DNA from: Planctomycetota bacterium
Lineage (GTDB): Bacteria > Planctomycetota > B15-G4
Direction of reading: 5' to 3'
NCBI GenBank assembly: GCA_038212275.1
Contig: JBBQUR010000014.1
Span: forward strand, 73,533-137,532
DNA length: 64,000 nt
In this document: positions 21,624-41,347 of the stretch, one piece after another
Layout of the letters: every line of letters begins with the position of its first letter
Numbering within the stretch: the stretch's first letter is position 1
Translations under genes and position numbers: made by a program
Notes under the pieces: generated by a model
Databases searched by the model: none
Told to the model about the DNA's origin: nothing
What the model saw: the letters and a program-made list of their open reading frames with translations, nothing else

Positions 21624-21700
21624 GGGCGCATAGCTCAGTTGGTTAGAGCACCAGCTCGACAAGCTGGGGGTCGCAGGTTCGAATCCTGCTGCGCCCACCA
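21624..21700 (+). tRNA. tRNA-Val (anticodon GAC), CCA encoded, unusual C33
   Basis: GGGCGCA acceptor / TGCGCCC-A-CCA; D-arm GCTC AGTTGGTTA GAGC; anticodon stem CCAGC/GCTGG, loop TCGACAA; T-arm GCAGG TTCGAAT CCTGC. Confidence 0.85.
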
Positions 21701-29813: not shown

Positions 29814-30445
29814 CGCAGGCGCCCGCTGGCAGGGTCGGTGCGGGCGTCGAGCGCCGCGCGCAGGTCGGCCGCGGCCGTGCGCGGATCGTGCGCGTCGGCG
29901 ATCGCGCGGATGACGGCGACGCCGGCGAGGCCCGCAGGCAGCGCCGGCACGTCGGCCGCGCTCAGGCCGCCGAGCGCGAACACCGGCGTGGAGGCGCAGC
30001 GAGCGAGCACCGAGCGCACTTGATCGTCGCGCAGCAGCGGCCGGGGCCGGCTGAGATGCGTCCCGCGGAAGGGCGAGAGCAGCAGCAGGTCGGCGGCCAG
30101 GTCCTGCTCCTGCAACGGCCAGTGCGCCGAGCGGCCGATGACAAGCCGCGGCGCGCGTTCCCGCACCTCGGTGACGGGCGCGCCGTCGAAGCCGAGATGC
30201 ACGCCGTCGGCGCGGCAGGCGAGCGCCAGGGCCGTGTCGGTGTGGATGAACAGCCGGGCGCCGCTGCGGCGCACCGCGGCCGCCAGTGCATGAGCGAGTC
30301 CGGCGCGTGCTGCCTTGTCGAGCTGCCGCTCGCGCAGCAGCAGCAGCTTCGCGCCGCCATCGAGGGCAGCCCCGGCCAGCCGCAGCGTCTCCGTGGGCGC
30401 CCGCGTGCCGGGCGTGATGAACAGCAGCCCGGCCGGCGCCGTCAG
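29810..30445 (-). CDS. thiE: Thiamine-phosphate synthase; conserved N-terminus only reachable from CTG in CTGA overlap with upstream stop
   Basis: LLFITPGT...ALDGGAKLLLLRERQ matches ThiE N-terminal LYFIMGS...ALKGGATLYQFREK; first canonical start (GTG 30274) would delete ~57 conserved residues; SD-like GAAGG 9 nt upstream of CTG. Confidence 0.65.
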   Translation of the reverse strand: MTAPAGLLFITPGTRAPTETLRLAGAALDGGAKLLLLRERQLDKAARAGLAHALAAAVRRSGARLFIHTDTALALACRADGVHLGFDGAPVTEVRERAPRLVIGRSAHWPLQEQDLAADLLLLSPFRGTHLSRPRPLLRDDQVRSVLARCASTPVFALGGLSAADVPALPAGLAGVAVIRAIADAHDPRTAAADLRAALDARTDPASGRLR

Positions 30446-32613
30446 GACGGTTCGCCTTCAAGGAACACGCCGAGCGGTTCGAGCAGAGCGGCGAGCCGCG
30501 CGCGCGGCAGTTCGGGGGACATGAGCAGCGCCGTCGGCGACAGGCGCTCGATCACGAAGGGCCGCAGGGCGGGGTCGTGCAGCACGCGGTCGAGGACTTC
30601 CTTGTTGCGGCCGCGCACGAGCGACACTGTGGCCTGCGTGACGAACTTGACCTTTCCGGCCCACTGGCCGATGGAGTAGATCACGTTCTGCGGCACTTCC
30701 ACGCGGCTGTGCTCGGACAGCGTGCGCAGGATGGAGGCGGGATCGAGTCCCTCCGCGACGGCCTTCTCGACCGACGCGACGGTGATGCGGTAGCGATAGA
30801 CGGAGTCGCTGGCCGTGCGCTCCGCGAACCGGTCAAGTTCCGTGACGAGGTCGTAGGTGCTGCCGTCCGGGAACAGCATGATCTCGAAGTCGGGGTTGAC
30901 GATCAGCGGCGAGCTGCGGTCGAACTCCGACTCCGGAACGACCATGCCCAGCGCCTTGGCGCCGAGAGCCGTGAGCCGCAGCAGGCCCGGATTGCCGTCC
31001 ACGTCGGCGATGTCGATCAGCCCGAAGAGGAAAAGGCGCTCCCGCGCCCACGTCGTGAGCGCCTGAGCAAGCTGATGCGGGTCGCGCATGCCGGTCTGCT
31101 GCGCGAACTGGTAGCGGCTCTGGAAGCGGTCGCGCACGCCGAAGAGGTCGAGGTTGGCGAGATAGCGATTGCGCGCGGCGAAGGCCGGTGCGTGGATGTC
31201 CACCCAGGTGTTGATCTTCAGCTCGCGCAGCCGGTCCAGATACAGCGCGAGCAGGCGTTCGCCGTGGAAGGGCTCGACCTCCAACACCCAGTGCCGGTCC
31301 GCGAATTTCAGCAGCCGCGAAAGCTTCTTCTCGAGCGGCGTGCGGTCCCAGCTGCGGCCCTTCACCGTGAGCACCACGCTGCGGTCCGGGCCGCGCTCGA
31401 GCATCGACTGCGCCTGGCTGAACTCGAACAGGTATTCGAAGAGCCACGCGCCGGTGAAGCCCGAGCTGTGACCCAGGATGAAGGACTCCTCCAGCTTGCG
31501 AACCGCCGTGCGGTAGACCTTGCCGGACAGCGTGAGCCGGATCGGGTTGTGCTCGACGTAGGAGAGGAAGGCCGACACGTCGGAGATGAGGTCCACGCCG
31601 AGGCTGTGCGCCGCGGAGATGCGCGGCTGTTCCGGCGCAAGGCAGGCGCGCATGGCGCCGACCAGCTCTTCGAAGACCACGACGACCTCATCGAACTGGT
31701 GCACGCCGTATTCGCCGAGCGAGACGTGGCGCACGGTGCCGAGCAGGTTGCTCTCGAGCGCATCCTGGAGCAGCTTGCGATTCCAGCGCCCGAGACTCTT
31801 GTGATTCTTCTCGAGCATCGTGCGACCGGCGACGCCGCCATAGGAGCACACCACCAGCTTGAGCAGCTCGAGGTGCCGCGGGTTGTCGATGCGCGCGAGG
31901 CGCTGCGCCACCGAGGCAGGCTCGGCCAGCCGCAGCGCCGCCTGCGCGTGCTCATCGAGATGCGATGAGGTGGCGGAACGCGGCACGTCGTCGCCGGCGC
32001 TGCCGAGGTGCAGCGTCAGCAGGGCCGACAATTCCTTGCGGTCCACCAGTCGCGTGAGCTGTCCGAGCAGAGTGAAGGTTTCCTCCACCGTGCGATCGTC
32101 GTCCCAGATGAACGCCTGCAGCAGGTCGCCCAGCTCGCACGGAACGAGGTAGCTGTCGCCGCCCGGGCCGCCGGAGGGGTCGGTGTGGGCTGGCGGGCGC
32201 GGCCCGGGCTGGCCGTTGGCGTCACCGTTCGAGGTCGTCGAGACGAAGAGGAAGCCGCGCTTGAGCAGCGCGTTGATCGCGGCCTTCAGCTCGAAGGGCG
32301 ACAGGTAGCCGAAGGAGCGGCTGCCTGTCACGTTGACGAGGTCCGCGCGGTAGCCCTCGCCACGCAGGAAGAACTTCAGCAGGTCCACCAGCTTCTTGGA
32401 CAGGAACTTGACGCGCTTGCGGACCGACTTCTCGGACGACATGCGCCTCTGGAGTTCGCCGATGAGGCGCTCCGTGGTGTCGGGCTCCGGGCCGTGCCCG
32501 TCCCAGAACGAGAGCAGCTCGCGCAGCTCCTGCGGCGCCCGGTTCTGGAGCGCTGCCTGCAAGGCGACGCCCCTCACGGCCGCATGCACTGTCGTGATGT
32601 CCCGCTCGACCAC
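30442..32613 (-). CDS. Helicase-associated domain protein (XPB/ERCC3 partner-like, Helicase_C_3-type), 723 aa
   Basis: Adjacent to XPB helicase as in actinobacterial XPB loci; GTG start; assignment by context and size, not by motif. Confidence 0.5.
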   Translation of the reverse strand: MVERDITTVHAAVRGVALQAALQNRAPQELRELLSFWDGHGPEPDTTERLIGELQRRMSSEKSVRKRVKFLSKKLVDLLKFFLRGEGYRADLVNVTGSRSFGYLSPFELKAAINALLKRGFLFVSTTSNGDANGQPGPRPPAHTDPSGGPGGDSYLVPCELGDLLQAFIWDDDRTVEETFTLLGQLTRLVDRKELSALLTLHLGSAGDDVPRSATSSHLDEHAQAALRLAEPASVAQRLARIDNPRHLELLKLVVCSYGGVAGRTMLEKNHKSLGRWNRKLLQDALESNLLGTVRHVSLGEYGVHQFDEVVVVFEELVGAMRACLAPEQPRISAAHSLGVDLISDVSAFLSYVEHNPIRLTLSGKVYRTAVRKLEESFILGHSSGFTGAWLFEYLFEFSQAQSMLERGPDRSVVLTVKGRSWDRTPLEKKLSRLLKFADRHWVLEVEPFHGERLLALYLDRLRELKINTWVDIHAPAFAARNRYLANLDLFGVRDRFQSRYQFAQQTGMRDPHQLAQALTTWARERLFLFGLIDIADVDGNPGLLRLTALGAKALGMVVPESEFDRSSPLIVNPDFEIMLFPDGSTYDLVTELDRFAERTASDSVYRYRITVASVEKAVAEGLDPASILRTLSEHSRVEVPQNVIYSIGQWAGKVKFVTQATVSLVRGRNKEVLDRVLHDPALRPFVIERLSPTALLMSPELPRARLAALLEPLGVFLEGEPS

Positions 32614-32973
32614 ATATTGATCCCGGGGTGCAGAATCTGAGGAGTCTAAGAGATCCTCGGGCCCAGCGGGAGGGGTTACCGGCCGGATCGCGGAGCCTGT
32701 TCCGCAGCGAGCCCTGCCCTCGCGTCCCGATCATCGCTGAGCGACCCGGGCTGTCCGCGGCCGGAATCCCGGCCCGCACCCGAGGTCGGCCTCAGCAGCG
32801 AGCAGCGCCCGAGATCTCCTCGAACCGTGGCCCCGGGGCCCACTCCCGGCCCCGCCGGCCCGGCCGCACCGGGCCCTCTCATGCGGGCGCAGCCTGCCAG
32901 CCCTCGCAACAGCCCCCACGCCGCGCGCCCCGTGCGCTGACGACGCCGAACTCCCGCAGAGCCCGCCCACCTC

Positions 32974-33008
32974 GCAGCCTTCGGCGGCGCCCCGCCGCCG
33001 AAGGCTGC
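32974..33008 (-). terminator. Perfect 15-bp-stem hairpin (gcagccttcggcggc / gccgccgaaggctgc, loop GCCCC) just downstream of XPB stop
   Basis: Arms are exact reverse complements; no U-tract. Confidence 0.45.
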
Positions 33009-33016
33009 GGGCTCTC

Positions 33017-33050
33017 GCGACATCGCCCGGCTACAGCCGGGCGATGTCGC
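33017..33050 (-). terminator. Perfect 16-bp-stem hairpin (gcgacatcgcccggct AC agccgggcgatgtcgc) overlapping XPB stop codon
   Basis: Arms exact reverse complements with 2-nt loop; includes the stop codon cta (33031..33033) in the loop-proximal arm. Confidence 0.45.
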
Positions 33051-34710
33051 GAATCTCGTACGTATATCCCTGCTCGGTGAGGAAGAGCTGGCGGTTGTTC
33101 GCGAAGTGTTCCTCGCGGCTGTCGCGGGTCACGATGGAATAGAAGATCGCCGGGCGCTTGTCGGACTTGGGGCGCAGGATGCGGCCGAGGCGCTGAGCTT
33201 CCTCCTGCCGGCTGCCGAAGGTGCCCGAGACCTGGATGGCCACGTTGGCATCGGGCAGGTCCACCGCGAAGTTGCCGACCTTGCTCACCGCGAGCAGCTT
33301 CAGGTCCCCGTCGCGAAAGCGTTTGTAGAGGTCCTCGCGCTCTTTCGTCGGCGTGCGTCCCGAGATGAGCGGGCAGCCCAGTTCGCGCGCCAGCTCGTCG
33401 AGCTGGTCGAGGTACTGGCCGATGATGAGCACGCGGTCGTCCTTGTGGCGTTCGACGAGCTGGCGCACGGTCGTGAGCTTGTCGGGGTTCTCGCTCGCGA
33501 TGCGGAACTTGTCGCGGCTGCCGGCCTGCTGGTAGGTGAAGCTCGCCTCGGTCACCAGCGGCAGGCGCACCTCCACGCAATGCGCCGTGGCGATCCAGCC
33601 CTGCCGCTCCAGGATCTTCCACGGCACGTCGTACTTCTTGGGGCCGATGAGCGAGAAGACCTCGTCCTCGTGGCCGTCCTCGCGCACGAGCGTGGCCGTG
33701 AGCCCGAGCCGTCGCCGCGCCTGGATTTCCGCCGTCACGCGGAACACCGGTGCGGGCAGCAGGTGCACTTCGTCGTAGATGACCAGGCCCCAGTCGCGCG
33801 CGGAGAAAAGCGCGAAGTGACCGAACTCGCCGGTCTGGCGGCGGCGATACGTGAGCATCTGGTAGGTGGAGATGGTCACGGGGCAGACGGCCTTGCTGTC
33901 GCCTGTGTACTCGCCGATCTGATCCTCGCCGAGCGTGGTCTTGTCGAGCAGCTCCGTGCGCCACTGCCGGACGGCGATCGTGTTCGTCGTGAGGATGAGG
34001 CACTGCGTCTGCAGCCGGTGCAGGCAGCCGATGCCGACGACGGTCTTGCCCGCGCCGCACGGCAGCACCACGACGCCGCTGCCGCCCTTCTCGGTGCCGC
34101 CCGCGTGGAAGACGTCCGCGGCCTCCGCCTGGTACGGGCGCAGGCCGAAGGGGCCGCCCGAGCCGAGGCAGGTCTCGCGCAGCGCGAAGGGCAGCGCGGC
34201 GCCCGAGGTGTAGCCGGCGAGATCCTCGACCGGATAGCCGATGCGGATGAGCGCCTGCTTGACCTCGCCGCGCAACGCCTCGTGCACCGTCAGGCCGCCC
34301 GGCACCGGTCGCCCGCGATCGAAGAAGCGCTTGAGCTGCGTGTCGCCGCCGATGCGCGCGAGCAGCGCGCTGTCCGGCGACACGAGCACGAGCGCCTCGT
34401 CCTGCCGCTGCAGGCGCAGGAGGCCGAAGCGCCGGATGTTGTCCTCGATGTCGCGCTCGACGTTGGGCGGCACCGGATAGCGCGATTGCTCGGTGAGGAA
34501 GCGGATGATGCGCTCGGCCGACAGTCCCGCCGCGGCGGCATTCCAGATGGAGAGCGGCGTGATGCGGTAGGTGTGCACGTGCTCGGGACTCTTCTCGAGC
34601 TCCGCGAACAGCGCGAGCATGTCGCGCGCCTCGACGTAGCCGTCGGCGTGCACCTCGGCGAGGATGGTGCGGTCCCCCTGGACCGTGAGCGGACGTCCGC
34701 TGCCGTTCAC
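33031..34710 (-). CDS. XPB/ERCC3-type SF2 DNA helicase
   Basis: Walker A VLPCGAGKT, DEVH box YDEVHLLPA, motif VI QRLGRILR; N-terminal damage-recognition-like domain; GTG start in GTGA overlap with uvrA-like stop. Confidence 0.85.
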   Translation of the reverse strand: MNGSGRPLTVQGDRTILAEVHADGYVEARDMLALFAELEKSPEHVHTYRITPLSIWNAAAAGLSAERIIRFLTEQSRYPVPPNVERDIEDNIRRFGLLRLQRQDEALVLVSPDSALLARIGGDTQLKRFFDRGRPVPGGLTVHEALRGEVKQALIRIGYPVEDLAGYTSGAALPFALRETCLGSGGPFGLRPYQAEAADVFHAGGTEKGGSGVVVLPCGAGKTVVGIGCLHRLQTQCLILTTNTIAVRQWRTELLDKTTLGEDQIGEYTGDSKAVCPVTISTYQMLTYRRRQTGEFGHFALFSARDWGLVIYDEVHLLPAPVFRVTAEIQARRRLGLTATLVREDGHEDEVFSLIGPKKYDVPWKILERQGWIATAHCVEVRLPLVTEASFTYQQAGSRDKFRIASENPDKLTTVRQLVERHKDDRVLIIGQYLDQLDELARELGCPLISGRTPTKEREDLYKRFRDGDLKLLAVSKVGNFAVDLPDANVAIQVSGTFGSRQEEAQRLGRILRPKSDKRPAIFYSIVTRDSREEHFANNRQLFLTEQGYTYEIRDIARL

Positions 34711-37700
34711 GTGCGTGCTCCGCGCCGGCCGCGCGGCCTGCCTTTGCCGAGGCCCGCTGCCGCGTCGACTCCGCCCGGGAGCACCGGCGCCGCGCGAAGG
34801 AAGCGGCCGGTGTGGCTCTGCGCGCAGGCCGCCACGGTCTCGGGTGAACCCGCGACGACGAGCTGTCCGCCTCCGGCCCCGCCCTCGGGACCGAGGTCGA
34901 TGACCCAGTCGGCCGACTTGATGACGTCGATGTTGTGCTCGATGACGACCACCGTGTTGCCCTGCTCCACCATGCGCTGAAGCACGACCAGCAGGCGCGC
35001 GACGTCAGACATGTGCAGGCCCGTCGTGGGCTCGTCAAGCACGATCAGGGCACGCCCCGTGCCGGGGCGACCGAGCTCGGCCGCGAGCTTGACCCGCTGG
35101 GCCTCGCCGCCCGACAGCGTCGTCGCCGGCTGCCCGAGCTTCAAGTACCCGAGCCCCACTTCGTCGAAGAGCGCGAGCTTGCGATGGATGCCCGTGTGGC
35201 CCTCGAAGACTCCCAGCGCCTGGTCCACCTCGAGGTCCAGCACGTCGGCGATCGAGAGCCCCTTCCAGCGCACCTCGAGCGTCTGGCGGTTGAAGCGCCG
35301 CCCGTTGCAGCTCTCGCACGGCAGCTGCACGTCCGAGAGGAAGTGCATCTCGATGATCTCGACGCCGCGGCCCTGGCAGGTTTCGCAGCGGCCGCCCGCG
35401 ACGTTGGAGGAGAAACGCCCGGCGAGGAAGCCGCGCATGCGCGCCTCGGGCGTCGACGCGAAGAGCGCGCGGATGTCGTCGAAGGCCCCGCAGTACGTGG
35501 CGGCATTGCTCGTCGGCGAGCGCCCGAGCGGCGACTGGTCGATCTCGAGCAGCCGGTCGAAGCAGCTCGCCCCGTCGATGCCGTCGAGCTTGATCGCGCC
35601 CTCGCCAAGGCCCTCGAGCTGCGCGCGCACCGCCGGCACGAGCAGCCCGGACACGAGGCTGGACTTGCCCGAGCCGGACACGCCGGTCACCACCGTGAAG
35701 AGCCCGGCGGGGAAGCGCACGTCGAGCCCTGCGAGGTTGTGCAGGCGCGCGCCACGCAGCTCGATCCCCTGCGCTCCCGGCTCGCGGCGGGCGCGCGGCT
35801 CCACGCGCAATGCCCCGGACAGCCAGCCGCCCGTCACCGAGTCGGGGTTGGAGAGCAGCGCGGACGGCGTGCCCTGCGCCACGATGCGTCCGCCCCGCGT
35901 GCCCGCGCCGGGCCCCACGTCGATGACGTGGTCCGCGGCTTCGATCGTCTGCTGGTCGTGCTCGACGACGAGGATGGTGTTGCCCAGGTCGCGCAGCTCG
36001 CGCAGCGTGTCGAGCAGGCGCCCCTGGTCGCGCGGATGCAGGCCGATGGACGGCTCGTCCAGCACGTAGAGCACGCCGACGAGGCGGTTGCCGAGCTGAC
36101 TGGCGAGGCGGATGCGCTGCGCCTCGCCACCCGAGAGAGTGGACGCGGGCCGGTCGAGCGACAGGTAGTTCAGACCCACGTTCACGAGGAAGCCGAGGCG
36201 ATTGCCGATCTCGCGCAGCACATCCACGGCGATGTGGCGCTCGTGGGCGGGCAGGTCCAGCGCATCGAACCATGCGCGCGCGTCTCCTACCGTGAGCTCG
36301 GCGACCTGCCGGATGTTGAGGCCGCCGACGGTGGTCGCGAGCGCCGCGGGCCGCAGGCGTCCGCCCTTGCAGCTCGGGCATGGCCCGACGTGCAGCAGCT
36401 CCGTGAGCGCGGCCTGCCACCAGCCGTCATTGCCCGCGCTGCGCCACCAGCCCTCCACCGTGGTGAGCAGGCCATCCCACTCCACGCGGTACTCGTAGCT
36501 GCGCGACTGGCCGGCGCTCTTGCGCGCATAACTGACCTCCACCGGGGCGCGCACGCCCGTGCCGCGCAGCGCGGCGGCGCGGAACTTGGCCGGCAGCGAT
36601 TTCCACGGATCACGCAGTTCGACGTCCATGGACTCCGCGAGGCGCACCAGCACCTGGCGCTGCAGGCTGTCGGGCCGCGCCAGGAATTTCCCGACGCGCG
36701 AATTCATCGCGCCGCCGAACAGAGGCCGGCCCGGGCTGTCGATGAGCCGCTTCTCGTCCGCGACCTGCTTGCTTCCCAGTCCCTCGCAGGTCTCGCACGC
36801 GCCGGCGTGGCTGTTGAACGAGAACATGCGCGGCGAGAGCTCGCCTTCCAGCGCCGTGCCGCAGCGCGCACAGGCGGCGCGCGCCTCGTAATCGATCGTG
36901 CTGCCGTCGGCGAGGTGGGCGCGCGCGAGGCCAAGTCCGCGCTGCTGCGCCGAGGCCAGCGCCTCGGCGAGGCGCGCGCGGTGTGCGGCATCCGCACTCG
37001 TGCGATCGATGATCAGTTCGACGCTGCGCTGCGCCGACACCTCGGGCAAGGCGTCGAGCCGCACCTCGACGCCGTCCAGTCGCGCGCGCACGAAACCGTC
37101 CTTGCGCAGCTCGGCGGACAGCGCCGCGATCTCGTCGGGGCGCGTGAGCGCCGTGCGGTGGTTGTGCTCGGCGCTCCACAGCGGCGCGGCGATGACCACC
37201 TTGGCGCCGCCCGCACGCGCGACGAGGTCCGCGGCCGCCGCCGAGGCACTCCAGGCCTTCAGCTCGCGTCCGCAGGTCCAGCAGTGCGGATGACCGACGC
37301 GCCCGAAGAGCAGGCGCAGATAGTCGTGCACCTCCGTGGTGGTCGCGACCGTCGAGCGGGGATTGCGCGTGGAGGTCTTCTGGTCGATGGCGATGGCTGG
37401 CGCCAGTCCGTCGATGGAGTCCACCGGCGGGCGGTCCATGCGCTCGAGGAAACGCCGCGCATACGTGGAGAGGCTCTCGACGAAGCGCCGCTGCCCCTCG
37501 GCGAAGATCGTGTCGAAGGCGAGGCTGGTCTTGCCCGAACCCGACGGCCCGGTGACCACCGTGAGCTTGCCGTGCGGCACGGTGACGTCCACGGACTGCA
37601 GGTTGTGCAGCGAGGCCCCGCGCACGACGAGGTCATGGCCGACCACCGCCGCCTCGGGCGACTTGCGCTTCGGGCGGATGGACGCCTTGCGCGGCAGCAG

Positions 37701-40526
37701 CACGGAAGCCAGCGCGCGCCCGGTGTGCGAGGCCTCCACCGCGAGCACCTGCTCCGGCGTGCCCACGGCCACGATGTGGCCGCCATCGCGGCCGCCCTCG
37801 GGGCCGAGATCCACGATCCAGTCCGCCACCTTCATCACGTCGAGGTTGTGCTCGACGACGATCATCGAGTTGCCGGCGTCGATGAGCCTCTGCAGCGCGG
37901 ACAGCAGCACGGCGACATCCTCGAAGTGCAGGCCCGTCGTCGGCTCGTCGAGGATGTAGAGCGTGCGCCCGGTGCTCGGCCGCGCGAGTTCGCTGGCCAG
38001 CTTCATGCGCTGCGCCTCGCCGCCGGACAGCGTCGTGGACGGCTGCCCGAGCTGCACGTAGCCGAGGCCGACGTCGAGCAGGGCGTCGAGGACGCGCCGG
38101 ATGCGCTTGTGATGCTCGAAGAAGGCGGCCGCCTCGGTGACGGTCATCGCCAGCACGTGGTCGATCGCCCGGCCGCGGTACAGGACCTCCAGCGTCTCGG
38201 TGTTGTAGCGGCGCCCCAGGCACTGCTCGCACGGCACCTCGACGTCCGCGAGGAACTGCATCTCGATGGTGTTCACGCCCGCGCCCTGGCAGGCCTCGCA
38301 GCGTCCGCCGGACACGTTGAACGAGAAGCGCCCCTTCGGATAGCCGCGCACCTGCGCTTCGGGCGTGCCGGCGAACACGTCGCGGATCAGGTCCATGAGG
38401 CCGGTGTAGGTGGCCGGGTTGCTGCGCGGCGTGCGGCCGATCGGCAGCTGGTCGATCTCCACGACCTTGTCGATGGCTTCGATGCCGGTCAGCGAGGAGA
38501 AGCTGCCCGGTGCGTCTTCCGCGTGGTGAAGCTTGCGCGCCAGCTCGCGCTTGAGCACGTGGTCCACCAGCGTGGACTTGCCCGAGCCCGACACCCCCGT
38601 GACCACCACGAGGCAGCCCAGCGGGAACTCGACGCTGATGTTCTTGAGGTTGAACTGATCCACGCCCGCGAGCGTCAGGAATTTGCCGTTGCCCGGGCGC
38701 CGCTGCGTCGGCACTTCGATGCGCCGGCGGCCGAGCAGGTAGTCGGTGGTCGGCGTGGGCGGACCGGCGAGCACATCGTCGATCGGGCCGCAGGCGAGCA
38801 CGTGGCCGCCGAGGCTGCCGGCGCCCGGCCCGAGATCCACGATGGAGTCGCTCGCGCGGATCGTCTCCTCGTCGTGTTCGACGACGAGCACCGTGTTGCC
38901 GCGATCGCGCAGCGCGTGCAGCGTGTCGATGAGCCGGCCATTGTCGCGCGGATGCAGGCCGATGGACGGTTCGTCGAGCACGTAGAGCACGCCCTGCAGG
39001 CCCGAGCCCACCTGGCTGGCCAGGCGCACGCGCTGGCTCTCGCCGCCCGAGAGCGAGCGTGCCTCGCGGTCGAGGCGCAGATACGGCAGCCCCACCGCCT
39101 GCAGAAAGCCGAGCCGGCTCCCGATCTCCTTGACGAGCTGGCGTCCGATGGCGGTCTCGCGCGGATTGAGTTCCAGCGCTGCGAACCACGCGACGGCATC
39201 CTCGACGGAAAGCGCGGCGAGCTCCGTGATGGGCACGTCGCGGAAAGTCACCGCGCGCGCCGCGGCATTCATGCGGCTGCCCTTGCACTCCGGACAGACG
39301 GCCGCGGAAAGAAAACGCTCCGCGGCCGCATGGCCGGGCGTGCTCGCTGCGCGTGCGATCGCGGGCAGGATGCCTTCGAAGGGCTTCGTGTCCTTGCCGC
39401 GCACCTCCTTGCCGCCGTCCTGCGACTTCCAGCTCCACTCGAGCGTGACCTCGCGCGTGCCCGATCCGTGCAGCAGCACGTGGCGCGCGCGCGCCGGCAG
39501 GTCCTTCCACGCCTTGTCCAGGTCGATGTCGAAGGCGGCGGCCACGGCCGCGAGGCTCTTCGGTCCCAGTCGCACGTAGCCGAGGTAGCCGCTGCGATCC
39601 ATGATCTTCAGCGCGCCGTTGCGGATGGACAGCCGGTCGTCGGCGATGAGCTTGTGCGCGTCGGGCTGCTGCGTGCTGCCGAGGCCGTCGCAGTCGGGAC
39701 ACGCGCCGTGAGGCGAGTTGAACGAGAACAGCCGGGGTTCCAGCTCCGGGAAGTCGCCGTGGCCGTCGGGGCAGGTGTTGGCGGTGGAGAAAGTCTCCGC
39801 GCTGCCGTCGTCGCCGCGCACGACCAGGAAGCCGTCGCCCAGCACGGCGGCGGATTCGATGGCCTCGGCGAGGCGCGCGCGGCGCTCGAGGTCGGGCTTG
39901 AGGCGGTCCACGACGAGCTCGATCGTGTGGCGGCTGTTGCGGGCCAGTTCGATCGGTTCGTCGAGGCGGCGCTCGGTGCCGTCGATCCACGCGCGCGTGA
40001 AGCCCTTGAGCAGCCAGCCCTGAAGATCCTTGCGGTACTCGCCCTTGCGATCGCGCACCACCGGCGCCAGCACGGCGATGCGCCGGCCGGCGTGCTTATG
40101 GAGGACGGTGTCCACGATCTGGTCGAGCGTCTGGCCCGAGACGCGCGCACCGCACTCGGGACAGTGCGGCGTGCCGAGTCGCGCATAGAGCAGGCGCAGG
40201 TGATCCCACACCTCGGTGATGGTGCCCACGGTCGAGCGCGGGTTCCTGTTCACCGTCTTCTGGTCGATGAGCAGCGTCGGCGAGAGGCCGTCGATGCGGT
40301 CGACCTTGGGCTTCTCCATGCGCCCGAGGAACTGCCGCGCGTAGGACGAGAGGCTCTCGACGTAGCGGCGCTGGCCCTCCTGGTAGATCGTGTCGAAGGC
40401 GAGACTGCTCTTGCCCGACCCGGACACGCCGGTGATGGTCGTGAGCGCGAGGCGCGGGATGGTCACGTCCACGTGCTGCAGGTTGTGCTCGCTCGCGCCG
40501 CGCACGACGATGTCGTTGAGCGTCAT
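34707..40526 (-). CDS. Tandem-duplicated UvrA (two complete UvrA-like modules, four ABC ATPase domains), 1939 aa
   Basis: Two repeats of GVSGSGKSSLAFDT...LSGGESQRVRLA...LYVLDEPSIGLH...GVSGSGKSTL...LSGGEAQR...LYILDEPTTGLH with Zn-finger CxxC pairs in each half; true start MTLNDIVV at complement 40526 (ATGA with suhB-like stop). Confidence 0.85.
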   Translation of the reverse strand: MTLNDIVVRGASEHNLQHVDVTIPRLALTTITGVSGSGKSSLAFDTIYQEGQRRYVESLSSYARQFLGRMEKPKVDRIDGLSPTLLIDQKTVNRNPRSTVGTITEVWDHLRLLYARLGTPHCPECGARVSGQTLDQIVDTVLHKHAGRRIAVLAPVVRDRKGEYRKDLQGWLLKGFTRAWIDGTERRLDEPIELARNSRHTIELVVDRLKPDLERRARLAEAIESAAVLGDGFLVVRGDDGSAETFSTANTCPDGHGDFPELEPRLFSFNSPHGACPDCDGLGSTQQPDAHKLIADDRLSIRNGALKIMDRSGYLGYVRLGPKSLAAVAAAFDIDLDKAWKDLPARARHVLLHGSGTREVTLEWSWKSQDGGKEVRGKDTKPFEGILPAIARAASTPGHAAAERFLSAAVCPECKGSRMNAAARAVTFRDVPITELAALSVEDAVAWFAALELNPRETAIGRQLVKEIGSRLGFLQAVGLPYLRLDREARSLSGGESQRVRLASQVGSGLQGVLYVLDEPSIGLHPRDNGRLIDTLHALRDRGNTVLVVEHDEETIRASDSIVDLGPGAGSLGGHVLACGPIDDVLAGPPTPTTDYLLGRRRIEVPTQRRPGNGKFLTLAGVDQFNLKNISVEFPLGCLVVVTGVSGSGKSTLVDHVLKRELARKLHHAEDAPGSFSSLTGIEAIDKVVEIDQLPIGRTPRSNPATYTGLMDLIRDVFAGTPEAQVRGYPKGRFSFNVSGGRCEACQGAGVNTIEMQFLADVEVPCEQCLGRRYNTETLEVLYRGRAIDHVLAMTVTEAAAFFEHHKRIRRVLDALLDVGLGYVQLGQPSTTLSGGEAQRMKLASELARPSTGRTLYILDEPTTGLHFEDVAVLLSALQRLIDAGNSMIVVEHNLDVMKVADWIVDLGPEGGRDGGHIVAVGTPEQVLAVEASHTGRALASVLLPRKASIRPKRKSPEAAVVGHDLVVRGASLHNLQSVDVTVPHGKLTVVTGPSGSGKTSLAFDTIFAEGQRRFVESLSTYARRFLERMDRPPVDSIDGLAPAIAIDQKTSTRNPRSTVATTTEVHDYLRLLFGRVGHPHCWTCGRELKAWSASAAAADLVARAGGAKVVIAAPLWSAEHNHRTALTRPDEIAALSAELRKDGFVRARLDGVEVRLDALPEVSAQRSVELIIDRTSADAAHRARLAEALASAQQRGLGLARAHLADGSTIDYEARAACARCGTALEGELSPRMFSFNSHAGACETCEGLGSKQVADEKRLIDSPGRPLFGGAMNSRVGKFLARPDSLQRQVLVRLAESMDVELRDPWKSLPAKFRAAALRGTGVRAPVEVSYARKSAGQSRSYEYRVEWDGLLTTVEGWWRSAGNDGWWQAALTELLHVGPCPSCKGGRLRPAALATTVGGLNIRQVAELTVGDARAWFDALDLPAHERHIAVDVLREIGNRLGFLVNVGLNYLSLDRPASTLSGGEAQRIRLASQLGNRLVGVLYVLDEPSIGLHPRDQGRLLDTLRELRDLGNTILVVEHDQQTIEAADHVIDVGPGAGTRGGRIVAQGTPSALLSNPDSVTGGWLSGALRVEPRARREPGAQGIELRGARLHNLAGLDVRFPAGLFTVVTGVSGSGKSSLVSGLLVPAVRAQLEGLGEGAIKLDGIDGASCFDRLLEIDQSPLGRSPTSNAATYCGAFDDIRALFASTPEARMRGFLAGRFSSNVAGGRCETCQGRGVEIIEMHFLSDVQLPCESCNGRRFNRQTLEVRWKGLSIADVLDLEVDQALGVFEGHTGIHRKLALFDEVGLGYLKLGQPATTLSGGEAQRVKLAAELGRPGTGRALIVLDEPTTGLHMSDVARLLVVLQRMVEQGNTVVVIEHNIDVIKSADWVIDLGPEGGAGGGQLVVAGSPETVAACAQSHTGRFLRAAPVLPGGVDAAAGLGKGRPRGRRGART

Positions 40527-41347
40527 GACGGCGTCCCCTGCGCGGGGGATCCGGCGGGCTGCCGGCCCGCGAGCACCGCGAGGATGTCCGCGTGCAGGCC
40601 GGGTCCGCAGGCCACGGCCGAGCGACCGTGCAACCAGTCGTCGCCACCGGTCATGTCGGTCACGAGGCCGCCGGCCTCGCGCACGAGCAGCGCTCCCGCC
40701 GCGACGTCCCAGGGCGAAAGGTGCGGCTCCCACAGGCCATCGAGCCGACCCGCGGCCACGTAGGCCAGGTCCAGCGCCGCGCTGCCGCAACGGCGCATGC
40801 CGCGCACGCGCAGCACCATGTCGGCGAAGTGCCCCACGTTGTTGTCGGCCAGTTCGCGGCGCTTGTAGGCGAAGCCCGTCGCGAGCACGCTCTCGATGAG
40901 CGTGCTCTTGCGCGAGACCGCGAGGCGACGGCCGTCCAGAGTCGCGCCAAGGCCTGCTGCCGCCGCGAAGGTCTCACGCAGGCGCGGCGCGTGGACGACC
41001 GCGGCCAACGGACGCGGCCCGTCGTAGCAGGCGATGGAGACCGCGAAGAAGGGGTGCGCCTGGCTGAAGTTCACCGTGCCGTCGAGCGGGTCGATGTACC
41101 AGGTCGGGCCGGCGAGCGCCGTGTCGTGCACTTCCTCCTCGGCGCAGATCGCGTGACCGGGCCAGCGGGCCCGCACGCGCTCCACGATGAGCCGCTCGGA
41201 CGCGACGTCCGCGTCGGTCACGGGATCGATCGCGCCCTTCATCCGCGGCGGCCGCGGAAAGGGAGCGTCGTGCGCCAGGAGCACCTCGCCCGCGGCGTGC
41301 GCCGTGTCGACGGCAAAGGCGAGAAGGGCTGCAGGATCGAGGCTCAC
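40523..41347 (-). CDS. Inositol monophosphatase family protein (SuhB-like)
   Basis: DPLDGT, WDVAAG motifs. Confidence 0.8.
   Translation of the reverse strand: MSLDPAALLAFAVDTAHAAGEVLLAHDAPFPRPPRMKGAIDPVTDADVASERLIVERVRARWPGHAICAEEEVHDTALAGPTWYIDPLDGTVNFSQAHPFFAVSIACYDGPRPLAAVVHAPRLRETFAAAAGLGATLDGRRLAVSRKSTLIESVLATGFAYKRRELADNNVGHFADMVLRVRGMRRCGSAALDLAYVAAGRLDGLWEPHLSPWDVAAGALLVREAGGLVTDMTGGDDWLHGRSAVACGPGLHADILAVLAGRQPAGSPAQGTPS

Follow-up and report, generated by a model that had tools for sequence, protein, structure and literature searches.

A double UvrA gene followed by genes for an XPB helicase and a p52-like partner in related Planctomycetota

The genes described here lie in a stretch of 64,000 nucleotides from a Planctomycetota bacterium (GenBank assembly GCA_038212275.1, contig JBBQUR010000014.1, positions 73,533 to 137,532), which we call the window and whose own numbering is used throughout. 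We combined the coordinates of its open reading frames (ORFs) with Pfam and NCBIfam domain searches of the ORF products. The window has a G+C content of about 70% and carries a long run of genes on the minus strand, in the order SAICAR synthase/epimerase, MBL hydrolase, PBP4 (S13), suhB, uvrA2, XPB, partner, thiE, thiL, tsaE, a gene x, and OEP. The subject of this work is the trio uvrA2, XPB and partner, which encodes a double UvrA, a helicase of the XPB/ERCC3 type and a protein of 723 residues. An earlier note on this DNA had described a suhB-like gene, a UvrA-UvrA fusion, XPB and a Helicase_C_3 partner, with ATGA and GTGA overlaps and two perfect GC hairpins behind XPB, and the ORFs, domains, overlaps and hairpins were all found again at the following positions.

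40523-41347, minus strand: suhB-like inositol monophosphatase gene (PF00459), with an ATGA overlap with uvrA2
40523-40526, minus strand: suhB/uvrA2 ATGA overlap, read from the sequence
34707-40526, minus strand: uvrA2, UvrA-UvrA, 1939 residues from ATG (NF001503, PF17760 twice, PF17755 twice)
37647-40526, minus strand: N-terminal UvrA module, residues 1-960 (alignment with 9gxk)
34710-37646, minus strand: C-terminal UvrA module, residues 961-1939 (alignment with 9gxk)
34707-34710, minus strand: uvrA2/XPB GTGA stop/start overlap, read from the sequence
33031-34710, minus strand: XPB/ERCC3-type SF2 helicase gene, 559 residues (NF045503, Pfam and PDB matches)
33017-33050, minus strand: hairpin 1, 15-bp stem with the XPB stop codon in the loop
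32973-33009, minus strand: hairpin 2, 17-bp perfect GC-rich stem, 3-nt loop, no T-run
32614-33030, minus strand: GC-rich spacer between XPB and partner, 417 nt, of varying length in relatives
30442-32613, minus strand: partner gene, 723 residues, predicted winged-helix array and C-terminal clutch-like domain
30541-30906, minus strand: predicted clutch-like/XPB-NTD-like domain of the partner, residues 570-691 (PF13625; NTD, N-terminal domain)

The uvrA2 product scored 2463 bits with the UvrA equivalog NF001503 (cut-off 1147) in two full-length stretches, and 2373 bits with TIGR00630. The earlier note could not tell whether each half retains a UvrB-binding domain; the UvrB-interaction domain PF17760 was found in two stretches (E 5e-45), one in each half, and the insertion domain PF17755 also matched twice. 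When the modules were aligned with the solved class I UvrA 9gxk, the N-terminal module matched end to end (residues 5-943, 1074 bits) and the C-terminal module over residues 6-952 (957 bits), the latter being somewhat more diverged and carrying a small insertion in the region of the UvrB-binding domain. The class II structure 2vf7 scored below class I structures for both halves. The protein contains four Walker A, four LSGGE and four Walker B motifs, and CxxC pairs were seen by eye in both halves; among 120 homologues, the full set of ATPase motifs was found in 84 by strict patterns and four Walker A motifs in 119. A class II or degenerate UvrA half is excluded by PF17760 and the complete ATPase motifs in both halves. 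Judged from their sequences, both halves are complete class I UvrA modules with a UvrB-binding domain, and the product is best viewed as a UvrA dimer in one covalent chain, which has four ABC ATPase sites and a pair of UvrB-binding domains.

The earlier note had also raised the concern that this 5.8-kb ORF was an assembly artefact arising from a collapsed uvrA duplication. The two halves of the window protein are only about 47% identical to each other, and more than 100 homologues of 1900-2000 residues, at 52-74% identity and with those named belonging to Planctomycetota, were found in independent assemblies. The N-terminal module was 56-73% identical to the N-terminal modules of related loci and about 47% identical to C-terminal modules, and the C-terminal module was 51-73% identical to the C-terminal modules of related loci. 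Since the N-terminal modules are nearer to the N-terminal modules of other genomes than to C-terminal modules, the duplication is old and not an artefact. Moreover, a fused double uvrA in one ORF, about twice the length of the E. coli gene, was reported for Planctomycetes by Mahajan et al. in 2021 (PMC8567305), which likewise excludes an artefact, and the protein was detected in a proteome alongside UvrB, UvrC and UvrD (PMC8567305). The double UvrA is thus the already known, standard UvrA of the phylum, and not the special paralog that the earlier note had seen in it. With NF001885, a double UvrA model of 1809 residues, the window protein scored 1279 bits, below the cut-off of 3054, and it falls outside that equivalog; we take the double UvrA of NF001885/PRK00635 to be chlamydial. 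Some double UvrAs are longer, with 2290-2400 residues (P0052, of 2394 residues at L004:150-7334, P0027, P0029, P0040, P0045, P0055 and P0064), of which the named one, P0052, is from Pirellulaceae. In these proteins, the second module stops near residue 1950 and is followed by a C-terminal extension of about 350-450 residues without XPB domains. In the protein collection, UvrA2 and the partner of the window are each represented by a 100% identical entry (P0001 and P0121, respectively, on a 140,355-bp NCBI contig).

XPB is an ATP-driven 3'-5' helicase and double-stranded DNA translocase, and its NTD binds p52 in TFIIH. The identification of the 33031-34710 product as XPB was borne out by XPB-specific domains: it scored 842 bits with the bacterial XPB equivalog NF045503 (cut-off 610) and 348 bits with TIGR00603 (cut-off 329), and it contains PF13625 Helicase_C_3 in the NTD (residues 8-127), PF04851 ResIII and PF16203 ERCC3_RAD25_C. 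In the alignment, the RED motif of Ssl2 and human XPB corresponds to TATLVREDG of the window protein. Its top PDB matches were yeast Ssl2 (287 bits) and human XPB (282 bits), in both cases including the NTD, while archaeal XPB matched at 151 bits over the helicase core only. By these alignments, the window XPB carries a eukaryote-type NTD. The exact XPB sequence of the window is absent from the protein collection, in which the best match is 96% identical, and XPB has probably been annotated publicly from another start codon. The XPB of Mycobacterium tuberculosis has helicase and annealing activities by itself, and the same 2012 study states that neither another homologue of a TFIIH subunit nor a partner complex of XPB had been found in bacteria (PMC3353954); in a review of 2026, what XPB does in living bacteria is still 'elusive' (PMC13024598).

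The point most informative for this locus had escaped the earlier note, namely that the partner is built like TFIIH p52. The only significant Pfam domain of the partner is Helicase_C_3 (PF13625, residues 570-691), no catalytic domain was detected, and public annotation calls it a 'helicase-associated domain-containing protein' or 'hypothetical'. A profile search of the partner family gave 156 representative clusters at E<=1e-30, mostly full-length and of 650-750 residues, while the distant relatives have only the last ~200 residues in common. The AlphaFold2 model of the partner, which was built with 27 homologues, is confident (pLDDT 83.7, pTM 0.68); it has a series of helix-helix-helix-strand-strand units and, behind them, a C-terminal domain of the alpha/beta kind. 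When we compared this model with the PDB using Foldseek, the top 16 matches were all TFIIH p52/Tfb2 from human, yeast and Chaetomium, including 8ebu_D (E 1.4e-9), 7zs9_2, 6trs, 6nmi_D and 6ro4_C, with alignments of 338-573 columns, and the N-terminal domains of XPB ranked next. At the level of sequence, the profile of the partner matched only XPB NTDs in the PDB (E 1.7e-5) and not p52, and the Pfam family Tfb2 (PF03849) gave zero matches in the 27 homologues even at E<=5, so that homology of the partner to p52 was found neither by the PDB profile search nor by Pfam Tfb2. There is good support from the model for an XPB-NTD/p52-clutch fold of the C-terminal domain, and the predicted overall architecture, a winged-helix array followed by a clutch, is p52-like, while for the N-terminal part homology to p52 is only a possibility. 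Only about 30 residues, forming one helix, follow the clutch-like domain in the model, which makes it unlikely that the partner has a p8-binding module. Within TFIIH itself, XPB is recruited, regulated and stimulated through a pseudo-symmetric dimer of its own NTD with the clutch of p52 (10.1101/507723); counterparts of both members of this pairing are encoded next to each other in the window.

The earlier note had asked whether the linkage of duplicated uvrA and XPB occurs beyond this genome, and the trio recurs in 16 related loci from metagenome-assembled genomes of the Planctomycetota/Phycisphaerales type. In a scan centred on XPB, with one genome per species and the best 80 of at least 504 XPB loci, uvrA2 lies directly upstream of XPB in 10 loci (L005-L013 and L071), most of them labelled Planctomycetota or Phycisphaerales, with L006 labelled 'bacterium' and L071 'Pseudohongiellaceae', and the partner follows XPB in all nine of these in which the contig extends far enough. 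Within the same best 80 loci, no UvrA was found within 10 kb of XPB in Hydrogenedentota, Chloroflexota, Nitrospirota, Leptospira, Clostridia, Poribacteria and others. In a sample centred on UvrA, XPB and the partner lie directly downstream in five of seven double-UvrA loci (L001, L002 and L085-L087), in addition to the window. The trio is kept while UvrA identity falls to 52%; L002, on a 5.3-Mb contig and with 67% UvrA identity, has the gene order of the window. At least 24 contig sizes are common to the UvrA2 and XPB match lists. Identities drop together across the loci, from 73 to 52% for UvrA, from 84 to 61% for XPB and from 73 to 30% for the partner, a co-divergence that fits vertical co-inheritance. 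At least four flanking contexts surround the trio, and some are wholly different from each other: a protease and VTT gene in L001, an ECF (extracytoplasmic function) sigma factor and kinase together with a transposase in L086, and a kinase and FHA gene together with a GreA-like gene in L087. Because the flanks of L001, L086 and L087 are entirely different, the trio moves as a unit.

The suhB gene, which the earlier note had placed at the head of the chain of overlapping genes, does not belong to the conserved unit. It lies upstream of uvrA2 in L002, L006, L007 and L011, is absent in L001, L086 and L087, and is parted from uvrA2 by a gene on the opposite strand in L085; suhB was excluded as a member because it is not conserved with the trio but is the neighbour of one sub-lineage. 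Where the trio does not lie behind suhB (L086:5853-6005, L087:5745-6005, L013:1-325, L009, L010 and L012), TATAAT-like -10 elements were seen upstream of it, for example CTTATAATTC and CCTATAATCC, and no shared palindromic operator or SOS-box was seen upstream of uvrA2 in the stand-alone trio loci. In L086, on a 4-Mb contig, XPB is split into two ORFs of 473 and 124 residues between uvrA2 and the partner (L086:11828-13626), with an insertion-sequence-type transposase just downstream; a frameshift, a pseudogene or an error in sequencing could each account for the split.

Across phyla, the partner is the commonest neighbour of XPB, in 28 of the 80 loci, and UvrA is not a universal companion of XPB. 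An AddB-like gene of about 1056 residues (PF21445 and PF12705) follows XPB on the same strand in 20 of the 80 loci, in Hydrogenedentota and Nitrospirota (L015:9475-14279; L042:113-8339), and overlaps it in L015; an AddA-like UvrD-helicase/PD-(D/E)XK protein also follows in 12 loci. This coupling to AddB- and AddA-like genes supports a general role of bacterial XPB in DNA repair.

Behind XPB, hairpin 1 has perfect arms of 11 nt at 33022-33045, folds into a stem of 15 bp and holds the stop codon of XPB in its loop, and hairpin 2 has perfect arms of 17 nt at 32973-33009. Both hairpins together reach -82 kcal/mol (z = -8.45 against shuffled sequences), and neither was called in a scan for terminators with a T-run. 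Hairpin 2 is possibly a terminator, an attenuator or an element stabilising the mRNA. The hairpins were excluded as a REP-like (repetitive extragenic palindromic) repeat family or a conserved regulatory element, since they do not recur in the window and the relatives lack them; hairpins and 417-nt spacer are specific to this lineage. In the relatives, XPB and the partner overlap by 4 nt (L085 and L087), are spaced by 417 nt as in the window (L007) or lie 4.2 kb apart (L005, the closest species-representative relative, with an 84% identical XPB). A sigma-70 promoter scan of the region gave no matches. At the far end of the partner (window 30427-30460), no ATG, GTG or TTG precedes the conserved TMP-TENI domain of thiE, and the sole plausible start of this gene is a CTG overlapping the TGA stop of the partner (CTGA, 30442-30445), which suggests a non-canonical start used through termination-reinitiation. 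ARAGORN and Rfam found a single RNA gene in the window, a tRNA-Val(GAC) at 21624-21700.

With the three genes identified, their domains complete, the fold of the partner recognised and the trio conserved, we suggest, in about equal measure of belief and doubt, that they constitute a conserved DNA-repair unit of Phycisphaerae-like Planctomycetota, in which XPB and a p52-like module are co-expressed with UvrA for excision repair and act at lesions detected by UvrA. In the window, this unit lies within a long run of housekeeping genes on the same strand. The double UvrA would sense lesions and load UvrB as in ordinary bacterial nucleotide excision repair (NER), as presumed from knowledge of the family. 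The partner would be a non-catalytic winged-helix scaffold; its clutch-like domain would pair with the NTD of XPB in the manner of p52 in TFIIH, and this pairing would anchor XPB and stimulate its ATPase. We consider it probable that the partner binds the XPB NTD in this manner and tunes the XPB ATPase, the pair forming a minimal translocase of the XPB-p52 kind. XPB and the partner would be made from the UvrA transcript, XPB by termination-reinitiation at the ATGA or GTGA junction in nearly all loci examined, and because they would share the transcript of UvrA, the module would be produced together with the damage sensor. It may then act at sites marked by UvrA, opening or remodelling DNA or clearing obstacles, and such action might assist the hand-over of lesions or steps after incision. 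That the module, made with UvrA, contacts UvrA and acts at the lesions it detects during excision repair is put forward more tentatively than the binding of the partner to XPB.

Several observations weigh against this reading. The 3' end of uvrA2 is the exact point at which XPB and the partner, as a cassette of two genes, are either found or missing: L003 (8-Mb contig, UvrA 54% identical) has thiE-x-thiL-tsaE right behind uvrA2 and no cassette between them, and in L004 the cassette does not adjoin the Pirellulaceae uvrA2, so that UvrA2 does not need it. The pair of XPB and partner also occurs without UvrA outside this lineage. The earlier note had read a translational link into the stop/start overlaps. 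For uvrA2 and XPB the 4-nt overlap (ATGA or GTGA) is indeed kept in 11 of 11 unfused relatives examined; however, in clusters of the L002 type nearly all same-strand junctions overlap by a few bases, and unrelated neighbours overlap as well (partner/thiE and thiL/tsaE in L002, and partner/thiE by CTGA in the window). Such overlaps are generic in the gene cluster; taken alone, they say little on function and are weak evidence. A spacer of 200-417 nt with strong hairpins parts the partner from XPB in the window and its closest relatives, and two unrelated FG-GAP repeat genes lie between XPB and the partner in L005 (L005:2755-6658); the window partner is probably neither translationally nor strictly transcriptionally coupled to XPB. 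Fusions within the trio are rare. UvrA2 and XPB are fused in frame in L001 (P0033, 2512 residues, GCA_046349655.1, JAXMBY010000086.1), which could stem from a 1-nt indel or a sequencing error, a single fusion of XPB with the partner was seen (P0187, 1216 residues, on a 16-kb ENA contig), and there was none among the 120 best XPB homologues. Finally, the physical cooperation of XPB or the partner with UvrA is something we infer.

The explanation that competes best is that of co-regulation only, in which XPB and the partner are an independent helicase module for repair or recombination (for example in fork or gap processing or strand annealing, as has been suggested for the M. tuberculosis XPB) that shares the damage- or growth-linked expression of uvrA without a mechanistic link. 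The occurrence of XPB with its partner but without UvrA in many phyla, the coupling of XPB to AddAB-like genes in Hydrogenedentota and Nitrospirota, the loci L003 and L004 in which the cassette does not adjoin uvrA2, and the rarity of fusions all favour it, as does the ability of the M. tuberculosis XPB to unwind and anneal by itself (PMC3353954). However, adjacency and the 4-nt uvrA2/XPB overlap persist from 73% down to 52% UvrA identity and through at least four flanking contexts, and the in-frame UvrA2-XPB fusion also counts against co-regulation alone. We regard this explanation as rather unlikely.

It is clearly less likely that the linkage is a historical accident, in which a single insertion in an ancestor brought the cassette to the 3' end of uvrA2 and descent then preserved it in a compact, overlap-rich cluster, its position having no bearing on function. 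Such an origin would agree with the finding that L002 has, and L003 lacks, the cassette precisely between uvrA2 and thiE, with the generic start/stop overlaps of the cluster and with the restriction of the linkage to one bacterial lineage. On the other hand, L001, L086 and L087 no longer have the housekeeping flanks (suhB, PBP4 and thiE/thiL/tsaE) or carry other genes in their place, and the trio has still stayed together there in unchanged order.

A further reading, which the earlier note had raised as nucleic-acid surveillance, is a system against phages or for the surveillance of nucleic acids that combines an ABC ATPase resembling UvrA with a helicase and an accessory protein. This reading is very improbable and was rejected: the PADLOC matches that might suggest it (552 bits for mad3 of MADS on the UvrA modules, and E 4e-23 for PbeA on the C-terminal helicase lobe of XPB) are generic family resemblances, given that the UvrA modules are far above the UvrA equivalog cut-off and XPB passes its own equivalog, while other MADS or Pbe components are absent, the partner matches no PADLOC defence model, the locus lies among housekeeping genes (PBP4, suhB, thiE, thiL and tsaE), syntenic and co-diverging across genomes rather than in a variable island, and the double UvrA was found with UvrBCD in a proteome (PMC8567305). 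Separately, the score of 552 bits of mad3 on a housekeeping UvrA indicates that screens relying on domains only could mis-flag genuine UvrA as MADS.

We found no description of a uvrA-XPB operon or of a bacterial p52 in the literature, for which coverage was poor for most subscription journals. The earlier note had not recognised the locus as a described system; this stands for the linkage of uvrA2, XPB and partner, which appears to be new, and does not stand for the double UvrA, which had already been published (PMC8567305). Apparently, the locus is an NER gene cluster of unusual and undescribed composition. What XPB does in living bacteria has been a standing question since 2009-2012, and a conserved operon with XPB and a p52-like partner directly behind the damage sensor of NER makes this role testable: XPB and the partner should bind through the NTD and the clutch, the pair should work with UvrA, and mutants should be sensitive to UV or cross-links and epistatic with uvrA. 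With just two proteins, the pair would also be a small model of the regulatory XPB-p52 interface, which carries mutations in human xeroderma pigmentosum, in trichothiodystrophy and in Cockayne syndrome, and it bears on the evolutionary origin of the XPB-p52 submodule of TFIIH. A bolder proposal, which we consider doubtful, is that XPB and the partner are a genuine bacterial counterpart, possibly a homologue, of TFIIH XPB-p52, physically recruited by the single-chain UvrA dimer to give a hybrid form of excision repair. If this were true, lesion sensing would be bacterial, by UvrA, and the opening or remodelling of DNA would be TFIIH-like; the NTD-clutch pairing that anchors XPB would predate eukaryotes or have been exchanged between bacteria and eukaryotes; and the statement that only XPB and XPD among the TFIIH subunits have bacterial counterparts would be contradicted.

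When we compared the locus with known systems, the nearest likeness for uvrA2 was the tandem UvrA of Planctomycetes, which shows the same fusion with both modules of class I and no essential difference in UvrA; the uvrA2 product likewise appears to be the housekeeping UvrA of its organism, and a linked XPB or partner is not mentioned in that paper (PMC8567305). The M. tuberculosis XPB (Rv0861c) belongs to the same NCBIfam equivalog family as the window XPB and is a stand-alone protein of about 550 residues, presumably not encoded adjacent to uvrA, whereas the window XPB gene belongs to a uvrA operon that also encodes a p52-like partner. Archaeal XPB-Bax1 resembles the present pair in that XPB lies beside a dedicated partner gene and a role in excision repair has been proposed. 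However, archaeal XPB is without the eukaryote-type NTD, and Bax1 is a nuclease, while the window partner shows no nuclease domain or similarity to Bax1: no nuclease or Bax1 family was found in it by Pfam or NCBIfam, and XPB-Bax1 is absent among its fold matches. The pair also resembles the XPB-p52(-p8) part of TFIIH, with an XPB that has the NTD, the RED motif and a core nearest to Ssl2 and human XPB, and a partner predicted to have winged-helix domains followed by the XPB-NTD/p52-clutch fold, for which p52/Tfb2 is the best full-length structural match. The differences from TFIIH are that the partner has 723 residues compared with about 460 for p52 and probably lacks the C-terminal p8-binding domain, that no p8, p44, p34, p62 or XPD is encoded near the locus, and that the damage sensor next to the pair is the bacterial UvrA and not XPC.

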